A stretch of 64,000 nt of DNA from Escherichia coli (GCF_029227855.1 NZ_CP074356.1); one strand, 5' to 3'; numbered from the stretch's first letter, positions 46,588 to 64,000 are shown. The notes: generated from the letters alone by a model not told the origin. Numbers and translations: made by a program.

Positions 46588-47184
46588 ATGGTTGGTGTTA
46601 CTCAAAGGTCAGGGAATTACTCACGTAATGTGCAGGTGGTTGTCGATTCTAACTCTGTTGATATTATAAAGTCTCCATCGATTTTTATGGATCTTGTTGG
46701 TATTTTAGTTGATTCGAATGTTATTGATCCTCGTACAAACAATGACTACGAGCCATATGATATTGAGAATAAAATAGACTTCAATGATGTTATAAAACAT
46801 AGAGAACGTATTGAAGGGTTCTATCTATATTCTTCGATGATAGATAAAGCGTATGAAACATTAAATGAAAGTATGCCTACTGCTAAGGAAACGGCACTGA
46901 AAAGCATCAATTCACGATATCTTGATTGTCAAGGAGATTTATTGCTTAAACATAGAGAAGCGTATAAGAGCTGCAAGGATGCTCAGGAACGGAATAATTT
47001 AAAGATTCAATTGGTAAGAGAGTTTGCAGATTGGATAATAGACAGTGTAATAGAGCACATCATTAAGAAATGCTTAAATTCTCTTATGGCAATGAATTAC
47101 ACAAGCGAAGAAATCGAATGCCATGCTTCTTTTATCGTTTATCATGCATTCGTAGAGTGTAAGATTCTGGAAAAACCAATATGA
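46588..47184 (+). CDS. hypothetical protein (198 aa), second gene of the AT-rich cassette
   Basis: ATG 46588 with GAGG SD; stop overlaps the next start (ATGA); no motif I recognise. Confidence 0.65.
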   Translation: MVGVTQRSGNYSRNVQVVVDSNSVDIIKSPSIFMDLVGILVDSNVIDPRTNNDYEPYDIENKIDFNDVIKHRERIEGFYLYSSMIDKAYETLNESMPTAKETALKSINSRYLDCQGDLLLKHREAYKSCKDAQERNNLKIQLVREFADWIIDSVIEHIIKKCLNSLMAMNYTSEEIECHASFIVYHAFVECKILEKPI

Positions 47185-47417
47185 TTATCTCTGATGTAAC
47201 AAAACCAAGCCAAACCTTGTATTACCTGGGAGCTCGGTTATTAGAATGCATGAGTTCAAATGCTTATTCGTATGTTGATATTATAGACTTGTATAATGAA
47301 TTCAAATCTAAAAATAACAACTCTTCATTCACGCAATATATTTACACTTTAAATTGGCTATATTTATTAGGCCTGGTTGATGCTAACGAAAATGGAGATT
47401 TGATATTATGTTTTTGA
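47181..47417 (+). CDS. hypothetical small protein (78 aa), third gene of the AT-rich cassette
   Basis: ATG 47181 overlapping the upstream stop; 3' end overlaps the ATPase start by 10 nt. Confidence 0.6.
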   Translation: MIISDVTKPSQTLYYLGARLLECMSSNAYSYVDIIDLYNEFKSKNNNSSFTQYIYTLNWLYLLGLVDANENGDLILCF

Positions 47418-49132
47418 AACGGCTAATAGTCAGTTCTTTCAGGCTTGGAGTGATTCGTGATATCGAATTTCACATTGGCGTTAATTTGATTATTGACCGA
47501 AACACCTCCAGCAAAGAGCAAACTGGAAATGGTGTGGGAAAAACTACTGTATTAAGAGCTTTAGATTTTTGTTTTGGAGCAGAACAACTGAATTTTTATA
47601 CCGATCCTGAATTCAAGAAAGAAAATTCGGTTATAAAAAATTATTTGATAGAGAACGAGATTGAGTTTTGTTTAATTCTCACAAAAGATTTGAATAATAA
47701 AACTGCACCAGTAATAAAAATTAAGCGTAAAATTACATCTGAGACTAATAAAACGAAGGTTATAGCCTCAATAAATGAAGAGTCCTATACGAAGGCTAAA
47801 GATTTCAACGAGGCTTTAAAAAGAACATTATATCTTGATTCCGCGATAAAACCGACCATACGAGAGATTATGGGACGTGTTATTCGAAATACGCATGACA
47901 AGATGTCGAACGCATTAAAAACGATAAAAATGGGTTCTAATACACAATATGAAACGTTAAATCTGTTTATGTTTGGGTTCGGTAACTCACAGATTCTGGA
48001 TGAAAAACAGTCAGTGACTAAAGCCTATAAACTGGCGAAATCCGATTATGAAGTAATTACTCGCCATCGCTCAAAGAATGCTTTGGAACAAGCTATTGCA
48101 ATTATAAATAGAGATATTATAGCACAAGAAGAGTTAATTTCTAATTTTCAAGTGGCAGACTCTTATAATGATATGCTTGCTGAGTTAAATGAGTTAAAAA
48201 TTAAAATTAGTGAAGTTTCTATCACACTATCATCTTTGGAGTTTAAGCAAAAATTAAACGATAAGGCTATACTAGATCTGGAAAAAAGTCATGAAAATAT
48301 AAATACACTAGATCTACAGAAGTTGTACTTAGAAGCAACTGATCGGTTAGGTAACTTAAACAAAGAGTTTACTGAGCTACTTTCGTTTCATAATAAAATG
48401 CTTGTAAAAAAAGCTGAGTTTATTAGAAAACAAATGCAGCCAGTGCTGCAAGAAATTTCCAAATATAAAGATGAACTAAATAATTTATTGACTCAAGAAT
48501 CAGAGCTTTTAAAGAGTTTGTCTTCGCATGGGACATTGGCAGACCTGCAAATAATGCAAAAAAAATTAAATTCATTATTTGAAGAAAAAGGTGGGCTTGA
48601 AGCTGGACTACTTCAAATCCAAGAGATGGAGAACAACTTTAATATACTGAAAGCAAAGTTTAATGATGTGTCAGATAGATTAAAATCTAAACTTGACGAT
48701 TTTAACAAACGTCTTGCGCTATTCAATTCCTATTTTTCTTTATATACTAAAAAATTATATCAGGATGAATATATTCTTTCCTATAAAGATTCCTCCGGTT
48801 CTTTCGTTTTTACCATTGAACCTTTAGGAACTTTGCTCACATCAGGTAATCAGGGAGAAGGAAAAAAGAAAGCCCAGGTTGCCTCTTTAGATTTTGCCTA
48901 TTTATCTGTCCAGGAGTCTTTAGAAGCCAGAACACCACGTTTTATAGCTCATGATGGAATTGAGGCAATTCATGTAAATCAAATAAATAAGTTATTCGAG
49001 ATAGCTTCGGGGATTAATGGTCAATATATATTGGCTATTCTTAAAGACAAGTTGGAGAATATTGATCAAGACTTCATCAATAATAGTGTTGTGCTTGAGC
49101 TTGGGGAGGACGATAAGTTTTTTAGGCTTTAA
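47408..49132 (+). CDS. SMC/Rad50/ABC-type coiled-coil ATPase (574 aa), fourth gene of the AT-rich cassette
   Basis: N-terminal P-loop TGNGVGKTTVLRALDFCFG (RecF/SMC-type Walker A); ~300-aa heptad-rich central region; C-terminal TSGNQGEG (signature-like) followed by RFIAHDGIEAIH (Walker-B/D-loop-like); GGAG SD. Confidence 0.8.
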   Translation: MFLKRLIVSSFRLGVIRDIEFHIGVNLIIDRNTSSKEQTGNGVGKTTVLRALDFCFGAEQLNFYTDPEFKKENSVIKNYLIENEIEFCLILTKDLNNKTAPVIKIKRKITSETNKTKVIASINEESYTKAKDFNEALKRTLYLDSAIKPTIREIMGRVIRNTHDKMSNALKTIKMGSNTQYETLNLFMFGFGNSQILDEKQSVTKAYKLAKSDYEVITRHRSKNALEQAIAIINRDIIAQEELISNFQVADSYNDMLAELNELKIKISEVSITLSSLEFKQKLNDKAILDLEKSHENINTLDLQKLYLEATDRLGNLNKEFTELLSFHNKMLVKKAEFIRKQMQPVLQEISKYKDELNNLLTQESELLKSLSSHGTLADLQIMQKKLNSLFEEKGGLEAGLLQIQEMENNFNILKAKFNDVSDRLKSKLDDFNKRLALFNSYFSLYTKKLYQDEYILSYKDSSGSFVFTIEPLGTLLTSGNQGEGKKKAQVASLDFAYLSVQESLEARTPRFIAHDGIEAIHVNQINKLFEIASGINGQYILAILKDKLENIDQDFINNSVVLELGEDDKFFRL

Positions 49133-61050: not shown

Positions 61051-61259
61051 ACCAGAATGATATCGAAGCCATGATTCAGCGTTATACGGAAGCTGAAATG
61101 GCGGTGCTGGACGGAAAATCCGTCACCTTTAATGGTCAGCAGATGACCATGGAAAACTTATCTGAGATCCGGCAGGGACGGCAGGAGTGGGAGCGCCGCC
61201 TTGCGGCTCTGATTACACGACGACGGGGGCATCCCGGGTACCGGCTGGCGAGGTTCTGA
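61047..61259 (+). CDS. head-tail joining protein, gpW-like (70 aa)
   Basis: ORF 61041..61259; ATG 61047 after GGAGG; overlaps terminase stop and portal start (TGATG). Confidence 0.6.
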   Translation: MNQNDIEAMIQRYTEAEMAVLDGKSVTFNGQQMTMENLSEIRQGRQEWERRLAALITRRRGHPGYRLARF

Positions 61260-62767
61260 TGGCAATTCTTGATGATGTGATTGGCGTTTTTTCACCAGGA
61301 TGGAAAGCGGCAAGGCTGCGTTCCCGGGCGGTGATCCAGGCTTATGAGGCCGTAAAAACGACGCGGACACACAAAGCCCGGCGGGAAAACCGAACTGCCG
61401 ACCAGTTAAGCCTCTACGGGGCCGTGTCGTTACGTGAGCAGGCCCGTTACCTTGATAACAACCACGATCTGGTCATTGGTGTATTTGACAAGCTGGAAGA
61501 ACGGGTGGTGGGGAAAAACGGGATTATTGTCGAGCCACATCCGGTATTACGCAATGGGGCCATTGCCCGTGATCTGGCAGCGGAGATACGCACCCGATGG
61601 AGTGAATGGTCTGTCAGTCCGGAAGTTACCGGGCAGTTTACCCGTCCGATGCTGGAACGTCTGATGCTGCGTACCTGGCTGCGCGATGGTGAGGTGTTTG
61701 CCCAGATGGTTTCCGGGCGCATAAACAGCCTGACGCCTTCTGCCGGTGTTCATTTCTGGCTGGAGGCACTCGAGCCAGACTTTATTCCCATGACCAGTGA
61801 TGAGAGCAACAGGCTGAATCAGGGCGTGTTTGTTGATGACTGGGGGCGTCCCGAAAAATATCTGGTGTATAAAAGTCGTCCTGTATCCGGACGGCAGATG
61901 GAAACCAAAGAAGTGGATGCAGAGCGAATGCTGCATCTTAAATTTGTTCGCCGTCTGCACCAGATGCGCGGGACGTCTTTATTGTCCGGTGTGCTGATCC
62001 GCCTCAGTGCCCTGAAAGAATATGAAGATTCTGAGCTGACTGCAGCAAGGATCGCTGCTGCTCTGGGGATGTACATCCGCAAAGGCGACGGACAGAGCTA
62101 TGAAACGGATGGTAATGACAGCAAGGAGAATGAACGCGAGCTTACCATTCAGCCAGGCATTATTTACGACGATCTGAAACCCGGCGAAGAAATCGGAATG
62201 GTGAAGTCGGATCGCCCCAATCCTAACCTTGAAACTTTTCGTAATGGTCAGTTGCGTGCCGTGGCGGCGGGCAGTCGTCTGAGTTTTTCCAGTACAGCGC
62301 GCAACTATAACGGCACTTACAGCGCCCAGCGTCAGGAGCTGGTTGAATCCACTGATGGCTACCTGATCCTGCAGGACTGGTTTATTGGTGCCGTCACCCG
62401 CCCGATGTATCGTGCCTGGCTGAAACAGGCTGTGGCATCCGGTGTTATCAGGCTACCCCGCGATCTTGACCGTTCTTCACTGTATACCGCGGTGTATTCC
62501 GGACCGGTGATGCCGTGGATTGACCCTGTTAAGGAGGCTGAGGCCTGGAAAATTCAGATTCGTGGTGGAGCGGCGACAGAATCAGACTGGGTACGTGCAG
62601 GTGGTCGTAATCCGGATGATGTCAAACGTCGGCGCAAGGCAGAAATTGATGAAAACCGCAAGCTGGATCTGGTATTTGATACCGATCCGGCCAGTGATAA
62701 AGGAGGCAGCAGTGCCGCAACGAAACGACAGGAGCCGCAGCACACCGACGACCAGTCCGAAGAATAA
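61259..62767 (+). CDS. portal protein (502 aa)
   Basis: ORF 61187..62767; ATG 61259 (MAILDDVIGVFSPGWKAARL...); size and position after terminase/gpW. Confidence 0.88.
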   Translation: MAILDDVIGVFSPGWKAARLRSRAVIQAYEAVKTTRTHKARRENRTADQLSLYGAVSLREQARYLDNNHDLVIGVFDKLEERVVGKNGIIVEPHPVLRNGAIARDLAAEIRTRWSEWSVSPEVTGQFTRPMLERLMLRTWLRDGEVFAQMVSGRINSLTPSAGVHFWLEALEPDFIPMTSDESNRLNQGVFVDDWGRPEKYLVYKSRPVSGRQMETKEVDAERMLHLKFVRRLHQMRGTSLLSGVLIRLSALKEYEDSELTAARIAAALGMYIRKGDGQSYETDGNDSKENERELTIQPGIIYDDLKPGEEIGMVKSDRPNPNLETFRNGQLRAVAAGSRLSFSSTARNYNGTYSAQRQELVESTDGYLILQDWFIGAVTRPMYRAWLKQAVASGVIRLPRDLDRSSLYTAVYSGPVMPWIDPVKEAEAWKIQIRGGAATESDWVRAGGRNPDDVKRRRKAEIDENRKLDLVFDTDPASDKGGSSAATKRQEPQHTDDQSEE

Positions 62768-62779
62768 TTCCTGGTTCAG

Positions 62780-64000
62780 GATGCAGGCTGGTCACCAGAG
62801 TGACGCGGATATTTATATTTATGACGAGATTGGTTTCTGGGGTGTTACAGCGAAGCAGTTTATCAGTGATCTGAATGCACTGGGCGATATCACCCACATT
62901 AATCTCCATATCAATTCACCGGGTGGCGATGTCTTTGAAGGCATCGCCATTTTTAATGCGCTGAAAACACATGGTGCGTCCATTACCGTTTATGTCGACG
63001 GTGTGGCGGCGTCAATGGCGTCGGTCATTGCGATGGTGGGAAACCCGGTCATTATGCCGGAAAACACCTTCATGATGATTCATAAACCATTTGGCTTTAC
63101 GGGCGGTGATGCGGAGGACATGCGCACCTATGCCGACCTGCTCGATAAGGTTGAGGCGGTTCTGTTACCCGCTTATGCACAGAAAACCGGGAAAACCACC
63201 GATGAAATTGCTGCCATGCTGGCGGATGAGACCTGGATGTCCGGTGCCGAATGTCTGGCACATGGATTTGCTGATCAGGTGACGCCAGCCGTTAAGGCAA
63301 TGGCATGTATTCAGTCAAAACGTACAGAGGAATTTAAAAAGATGCCGGAATCCATTCGAAACATGATTACTCCGCCACGCAACAGTGCTCCACGCGTACA
63401 GGATGATGAACCTGCAGCCTCCCGGACGCCAGTGCAGGCAGCAGCACCCGTGGTGGATGAAAACAGTATCCGTGCGCAGGTACTGGCAGAGCAAAAAGCG
63501 CGTGTAAACGGTATTAATGATCTGTTTGCCATGTTTGGCGGGCGTTATCAGACGCTGCAGGCTCAGTGTCTTGCCGATCCTGAGTGTTCGCTGGAGCAGG
63601 CCCGCGAAAAGCTGTTGAACGAGATGGGGCGCGAGTCCACGCCATCCAATAAAAATACACCGGCTCATATTTATGCTGGTAACGGTAATTTTGTGGGGGA
63701 CGGGATCCGCCAGGCGCTGATGGCGCGTGCCGGATTTGAAAAAACCGAACGTGATAATGTCTACAACGGGATGACCCTGCGTGAATATGCCCGTATGTCA
63801 CTGACTGAACGGGGTATTGGGGTTTCCGGTTATAACCCGATGCAGATGGTCGGTGCGGCGTTCACCCACAGTACGTCTGACTTCGGTAATATTCTGCTGG
63901 ATGTTGCGAACAAAGCCATTCTGCAGGGCTGGGAAGATGCTCCTGAAACCTATGAACAATGGACGCGGAAAGGTCAGTTGTCTGATTTTAAAATTGCCCA
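62780..64000 (+). CDS. prohead serine protease (ClpP-like) fused to scaffold/capsid region; 3' end beyond the window
   Basis: Hand translation MQAGHQSDADIYIYDEIGFWGVTAKQF...INSPGGDVFEGIAIFNALKTHGASITVYVDGVAASMASVIAMVG... (ClpP-type motifs); frame open to position 64000. Confidence 0.8.

Follow-up and report, generated by a model that had tools for sequence, protein, structure and literature searches.

The 3' end of the window, by which we mean the whole stretch of 64,000 nucleotides of Escherichia coli DNA that was analysed, very probably belongs to a lambdoid prophage lodged at the Qin/rspB site and carries the 5' two-thirds of its only head-shell gene, whose product would be one 675-aa protease-scaffold-capsid polypeptide. 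Three parts can be delineated along this predicted chain, namely a ClpP-like protease (aa ~20-200), a linker followed by a helical Nu3-like scaffold (~210-325) and an HK97-fold capsid domain (~327-675).

The reading frame of the gene (frame 0, i.e. 62712 mod 3) is free of stop codons from position 62511 to the window edge at 64000. Among the three forward frames translated for positions 62713-64000 of the + strand, on which the gene, its parts and the portal gene upstream all lie, only one is open throughout. Counted from a GTG at 62712 the window holds 429 codons and 2 nt, and counted from an ATG at 62781 it holds 406 codons, in agreement with the claim made in the first-pass annotation that a single open frame of over 400 codons runs to the window edge. 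By our own estimate the chance of an equally long stop-free run is ~(61/64)^429, or roughly 1e-9. The GTG at 62712-62714 stands 5 nt downstream of a perfect ribosome-binding site, AAGGAGG (62700-62706; the whole element, 62700..62714, was read from the sequence), and its pairing with the anti-Shine-Dalgarno (SD) sequence, at -11.6 kcal/mol, is the best among the in-frame starts of the fusion gene. Two complete genomes contain the identical sequence, and in both the NCBI annotation also places the start at this codon. The next in-frame start is the ATG at 62781 (Met24), which lacks a comparable ribosome-binding site, and a conserved Trp-Phe/Tyr motif (W21-F22), together with the first modelled beta-strand (aa 21-26), begins upstream of it. 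We rejected this ATG as the start, the ribosome-binding site, the anti-SD energy, the annotation and the conserved upstream W21-F22 all favouring GTG 62712, which is most likely where the fusion gene begins. Thus, of the gene span given earlier from position 62780, the open frame stands and the start does not, the best start lying ~69 nt further upstream. With the start at GTG 62712, the gene (62712..64000 in the window) therefore contributes the first 429 of its 675 codons to the window and is overlapped by 56 nt, in a different frame, by the 3' end of its upstream neighbour. The latter is a lambda-family portal protein gene (61259..62767, with its stop codon at 62765-62767), annotated as WP_000985923.1 in identical and near-identical genomes.

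The last 246 codons lie beyond the window, and for these the intactness of the gene in the source strain is read from near-identical genomes. One of them, E. coli 19A14, matches window positions 27501-64000 at 99.69% and differs from positions 40000-64000 by 2 mismatches, neither of which falls in the fusion gene. Both in 19A14 and in Ecol_316 the frame runs to 675 aa without a frameshift or a stop (WP_001136590.1; the full-length gene is L004:35213-37240 in the near-identical genome), so extending the sequence, the check proposed at the outset, left the frame intact; in window-equivalent coordinates the gene would finish at 64739. The product was compared with NF045540 (scaf_prot_MCP1), the NCBIfam model for the 'ClpP-like prohead protease/major capsid protein fusion protein', which has a curated cut-off of 475 bits. 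The 429-aa piece encoded in the window scores 577.8 bits with it on its own, over model positions 2-405 of 652, and the 675-aa protein scores 985.7 bits over positions 2-651 of 652. The 675-aa protein also matches phrog_133 end to end. The earlier proposal of a protease-scaffold-capsid fusion that continues past the window is thus borne out by a passing NF045540 score and, in the near-identical genomes, by the 675-aa ORF, its Phage_capsid_4 match and its HK97 fold. Neither a stop or frameshift nor the lack of a capsid domain, the two outcomes named beforehand as telling against the proposal, was encountered in those genomes.

The gene is common and the architecture recurs well outside E. coli strains closely related to the source. 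Of 5426 complete E. coli genomes, 2119 (~39%) contain the segment 62700-64000, with many copies 100% identical, and a single cluster of 100%-identical 675-aa proteins has 357 member sequences. When 1.84 billion cluster representatives were searched exhaustively, 7050 proteins were recovered at E <= 1e-30; among the highest-ranking of these, each standing for a cluster formed at 50% identity, over 100 match the protein end to end at 36-54% identity. To judge from this distribution, the fusion architecture is old and widespread. The same data bear on the reading that the long ORF is an artefact, i.e. that separate protease and capsid genes have been joined by a sequencing error or by a recent loss of a stop codon. 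Chimeric or oddly extended versions do exist, such as 1159-aa proteins that join the portal to the fusion and other singletons, and indel errors do occur around the locus. However, these chimeras are singletons joined at differing positions, whereas the uninterrupted 675-aa ORF is found in independent complete genomes and in phages and includes the 357-member identical cluster, and the end-to-end architecture extends, at identities as low as 36%, to over 100 proteins that each represent a cluster formed at 50% identity. We give the artefact practically no credence, and we retain the single-gene fusion.

The extended versions were also considered in their own right. Database proteins of 1135-1159 aa that combine portal, protease and capsid are P0005, P0007, P0009, P0011 and P0043. 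A natural portal-protease-capsid fusion, or a programmed frameshift producing one, was rejected as their explanation, as the 1135-1159-aa proteins are all singletons and their frame switch sites differ. Most likely these portal-plus-fusion chimeras are products of indel errors or of sporadic mutations in or near the overlap of the two genes.

The N-terminal part of the product, for which ClpP-like protease motifs had been claimed, does contain a ClpP-like (peptidase S14-type) prohead protease domain at aa 31-191 (62802..63284), recognized by the Pfam CLP_protease model with E 1.3e-36. The 429-aa piece further scores 216.8 bits with the NCBIfam model Clp_rel_HeadMat ('head maturation protease, ClpP-related'), for which the cut-off is 120. 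A pairwise alignment with E. coli ClpP sets Ser101 (codon 63012-63014), His124 (63081-63083) and Glu173 (63228-63230) opposite the catalytic Ser97, His122 and Asp171 of that enzyme. Ser101 and His124 are invariant in all 53 full-length homologues examined (33-69% identity to the query), and position 173 is Glu in 44 of the 53 and Asp in 5. The alignment points to a catalytic Ser101-His124 pair with Glu173 at the position of ClpP Asp171, the geometry of the triad being putative. At the level of structure, Foldseek matched the AlphaFold model of the full-length protein to solved ClpP structures with E ~5e-13 and a target TM of ~0.8. A cellular ATP-dependent ClpP would be expected as a stand-alone subunit of ~200 aa encoded beside clpX; the present protein has 675 aa, is encoded in a phage head module and misses the cellular ClpP cut-offs (for TIGR00493, 60.7 bits vs 308.6). 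Because it scores so far under these cut-offs, the protease is a phage relative of ClpP and not a ClpP paralogue.

At the other end of the chain, the major-capsid-protein part (aa 327-675) begins within the window, where its N-terminal helices, placed by Pfam and by the model, occupy 63690..64000 (aa 327-429). Downstream head-protein sequence is therefore present in the window as had been claimed, with the qualification that the capsid domain proper takes up only the last ~100 codons before the window end. On the extended 675-aa protein the Pfam model Phage_capsid_4 (PF25209) matches aa 375-672 with E 1.1e-54, this match starting at nt 63834, and there is a weaker match to a Mu gpT-like Pfam model. 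The HMM search proposed in the first-pass annotation thus returned both a protease profile and a capsid profile. The AlphaFold model of the full-length protein has a mean pLDDT of 86.7 and consists of three ordered regions with disordered linkers between them. When submitted to Foldseek it returned ClpP chains only, which swamped the list, and aa 320-675 were modelled separately for the capsid fold (pLDDT 89.9, pTM 0.85). This second model matches the capsid proteins of HK97, D3, T5 and newer phages, as well as encapsulins, with a Foldseek probability of 1.0 and E ~1e-9, and the best of these fold matches share 7-14% identity with it. A sequence search of the PDB returned ClpP relatives only, and no capsid structure with detectable similarity was found in the PDB copy searched.

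Between the protease and the capsid lie a motif, a linker and a small helical domain. The motif, a conserved F-x-x-M-P (aa 208-212; 63333..63347), follows the protease domain, and its Pro212 is present in 50 of the 53 homologues. The linker is a disordered stretch rich in Pro, Ala and Gln (aa 224-247; 63381..63452; AlphaFold pLDDT <50), which varies in both length and sequence across the NF045540-type family. Beyond it AlphaFold and hhalign delineate a scaffold-like middle domain (aa 250-307; 63459..63632) made of three helices (250-273, 280-288 and 294-307), which are modelled with pLDDT values of 84-96 and include an Arg264 that is invariant in the 53 homologues. In the AlphaFold model a second short disordered stretch (aa 308-325) precedes the helices with which the capsid part opens. 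When a profile built from the 53 homologues was compared with lambda gpC by hhalign, 272 columns aligned (probability 91.9%, E 7e-7), from the protease on into the Nu3 scaffold portion and including the middle region of aa 250-307. An hhalign comparison of the same profile with the lambda capsid protein gpE gave no similarity. Distant homology, along with position, supports the 'scaffold' label as the predicted role of the middle region. NCBIfam has a further model, NF045541 ('prohead protease/major capsid protein fusion protein'), that matches aa 220-672 of the protein with 401.9 bits and is without the ClpP-like N-terminus. Because NF045541 shares the scaffold and capsid portion and not the ClpP-like N-terminus, it suggests that the protease module may have been swapped on a common scaffold-capsid body.

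Nested initiation, as in the case of C and Nu3, is established for lambda. The present gene could likewise give rise to two nested in-frame products, a minor full-length protein and a protease-free scaffold-capsid protein made from an internal start, the latter being the main shell subunit. If so, not every shell subunit would carry the protease, and the single-gene fusion reading would be refined rather than replaced. We regard such nested products as a possibility worth stating but of rather low likelihood, as the evidence pulls in two directions. Across the family, the linker that follows the protease contains a Met in 48 of 53 diverse members, and the residues E, K and G, whose codons are able to spell an SD sequence, are enriched at the five positions before this linker Met (38% vs 21% in the background). 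An SD-like site precedes the linker ATG in all six distant members that were fetched because of their linker Met, two of the six having a perfect AAGGAGG with a 5-nt spacer. When the 16-28 in-frame ATGs of each of these six genes are ordered by anti-SD pairing, the linker ATG takes first or second place, at a level comparable to that of the annotated start. The positions of the linker Met are aa212 in L005, aa229 in L006, aa231 in L007, aa246 in L008, aa213 in L009 and aa229 in L010. Moreover, hhalign places the SD-preceded internal ATG of lambda (at the junction of RLSGGR and MTKE) opposite Met218 of the query. These observations have to be set against the fact that the linker ATGs were picked after the alignment had been viewed, and that the SD-like sites could be left over from an ancestor with two separate genes.

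For the window gene the candidate internal start is the ATG at 63342-63344 (Met211), which, as read from the sequence, has a GAGGAA at 63327-63332, ~9 nt upstream. A site of the GAGGAA, AGGA or AGGAG-like kind is kept ~9 nt upstream of this Met in E. coli, mEp213, Gifsy-2 and CF165a, with pairing energies of -6.0 to -8.8 kcal/mol. But the signal is weak here: Met211 comes fourth in the ranking with -6.0 kcal/mol, the true start having -11.6, and its SD-like bases could simply reflect conserved Glu-Phe residues. Further, the linker proper of the window gene has no Met, the ATG at 63363-63365 (Met218) is without an SD sequence, and the signal is weak throughout the E. coli/Gifsy-2 clade. Taken over the family, the pattern suggests that a second, protease-free scaffold-capsid product may be made in many of its members. 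If this is true, the nested product would explain protease dosage in phages that apparently make one protease per capsid subunit.

The lambda genome yielded an observation of its own in this connection. In RefSeq NC_001416 (L012) nu3 starts at 2333, which corresponds to residue 239 of gpC. Just one of the in-frame ATGs inside C has a strong SD (AGGAGGG, -10.8 kcal/mol), namely that of residue 309, again the RLSGGR and MTKE junction. Because this strong-SD internal ATG lies at residue 309, the annotated lambda nu3 start may be too far upstream.

The genomic setting of the fusion gene is that of a prophage head module. Positions 1-37400 of the window are ordinary E. coli terminus-region chromosome, running through manA, fumAC, tus, rstAB and ynfEFGH to rspAB. 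The lambdoid prophage begins at ~37400, with its integrase adjoining rspB, where the Qin element has its site. The late region of the prophage comprises, in order, a DUF1441 small terminase, the large terminase, a 70-aa W-like protein, the portal, the fusion, a 107-aa protein of the DUF2190/Phage_cement_2 type and lambda-like tail genes. This order, with portal, fusion and cement genes in succession, is also seen in mEp460, in Gifsy-2 and in distant metagenomic relatives. The annotation of L001 and L004 contains no other capsid or scaffold gene in the head module. Elsewhere the prophage (~37400-64000) carries Qin-type genes, viz. dicB, ydfA, hokD, rem, essD and rrrQ; what sets it apart from the Qin element of K-12 is that its lambda-like head and tail module is complete. 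At ~46590-49130 (L004:19089-21633), next to hokD, the annotation of a near-identical genome marks a three-gene 'ABC-three component system' cargo, consisting of an ABC-3C protein, a middle component 6 and a DUF2326 protein, which looks like an anti-phage defence module.

Near-identical genes (98-99.7% at the nucleotide level) occur in the sequenced phages mEp460, cdtI, Tritos, Ayreon and phi458. These copies, some of them carried by phages that form plaques (mEp460 and cdtI, for example), argue that the gene is likely to be functional. This bears on the reading that the ORF, as a remnant within a defective Qin-like prophage, is decaying and would yield no functional capsid. The prophage does occupy the Qin site, where E. 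coli K-12 has a defective element, and the annotation of the closest genome marks as frameshifted a tail assembly gene downstream of the head module, beyond the window (L004:45267-45808). Because of this frameshifted tail gene, the prophage, taken as a whole, may fall short of full function. Its head module, however, is complete and syntenic with those of viable phages, the gene is 98-99.7% identical to genes of sequenced phage genomes, the catalytic residues are intact and the protein does not differ from that of a widely distributed allele. A decaying capsid gene is hence, in our estimation, very unlikely, and an intact fusion gene remains the preferred reading. Across the phage records (H1-H25) the same gene is variously labelled 'head-tail preconnector protease C', 'Nu3', 'head maturation protease', 'protease/scaffold protein', 'Clp protease' and 'major capsid protein'.

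The closest studied counterpart is the Gifsy-2 protein (STM1034.3n / YP_001700678.1), which is 69% identical to the E. coli protein over its full length. Like the E. coli gene, the Gifsy-2 gene belongs to a lambdoid prophage and combines a ClpP-like protease, a central scaffold-like region and a C-terminal capsid in one ORF. The synteny is alike as well, with the neighbouring 107-aa decoration proteins being 60% identical. The Gifsy-2 protein differs in its Salmonella host, in its linker sequence and in being 21 aa longer. Effantin et al. (2010, Virology 402:355) are reported to have described a 'tripartite capsid gene' of Gifsy-2, with a ClpP-like N-terminus, a C-terminal capsid protein and a central region of ~200 residues with a possible scaffolding role. 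That study reportedly included cryo-EM of Gifsy-2 procapsids and capsids, and the polypeptide is said to be self-processed. Our literature searches found no experimental study of the E. coli allele. Other sources state that the protease and coat genes of Gifsy-2 are fused (PMC12315714), that its capsid has T=7 geometry (PMC8814770) and that its decoration protein is trimeric and sits at the 3-fold axes (PMC8538268). The survey in PMC8814770 further records that no HK97-fold capsid protein was obtained for Gifsy-2, with no reason given; it is plausible that the fused architecture lies behind this missing entry.

Comparable genes are known from other hosts. For the Pseudomonas MD8-like phages, it was independently proposed in 2021, on the basis of sequence analysis and modelling, that one gene (gp5 of MD8) encodes protease, scaffold and capsid protein (PMC8508860), and the protein of CF165a, a Pseudomonas phage of the MD8-like group, is 56% identical to the E. 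coli protein. Within the family defined by NF045540 or PHROG 133, which includes mEp460, cdtI, mEp213 and the MD8-like phages, the E. coli protein is an ordinary member with no material difference.

The relationship to the classical systems is looser. As in lambda, the gene directly follows and overlaps a lambda-family portal gene, and a gene for a decoration or cement protein comes next; lambda differs in that its capsid protein, gpE, is encoded by a separate gene. The proteases differ too: lambda gpC is an S49 protease, whereas the E. coli protein scores as ClpP/S14-type, and a search for an S49 (SppA-type) protease domain in it gave 23.2 bits with the SppA model, against a cut-off of 155. 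The relationship to lambda gpC would appear to be only a distant one. With HK97 the protein shares an HK97-fold shell domain and a scaffold function fused N-terminally to the capsid protein; removal of the delta-domain scaffold of HK97 gp5 by the phage protease is an established pathway. HK97 differs in that its protease, gp4, is the product of a separate gene. The HK97 protease has a herpesvirus-protease-like fold, and the HK97 shell is stabilised by covalent cross-links and not by a cement protein.

These three systems offer a model for how the E. coli product may act, its assembly order, self-cleavage, T=7 geometry and cementing all being drawn from Gifsy-2, HK97 and lambda. The polypeptide would be made as one chain, and the C-terminal HK97-fold domains would come together on the portal to form a T=7 procapsid, the protease and scaffold parts being turned towards its interior. 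Once the shell had closed, crowding inside it would activate the Ser101-His124 protease, which would cut away the N-terminal ~330 residues, and the resulting fragments would leave. The shell would expand during DNA packaging, and the expanded shell would be cemented by trimers of the product of the next gene, the DUF2190/Phage_cement_2 protein.

Because it falls in a curated family and has a studied homologue of 69% identity in Gifsy-2, the gene is already known, being an ordinary member of a family that is both curated and experimentally exemplified. The value of the present analysis lies in annotation. Many records label the gene only 'Clp protease', 'head maturation protease' or 'Nu3', and yet it encodes the major capsid protein of very common lambdoid prophages of E. 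coli, Shigella and Salmonella. The gene also shows, in compact natural form, how protease, scaffold and shell functions can be brought together in one chain.
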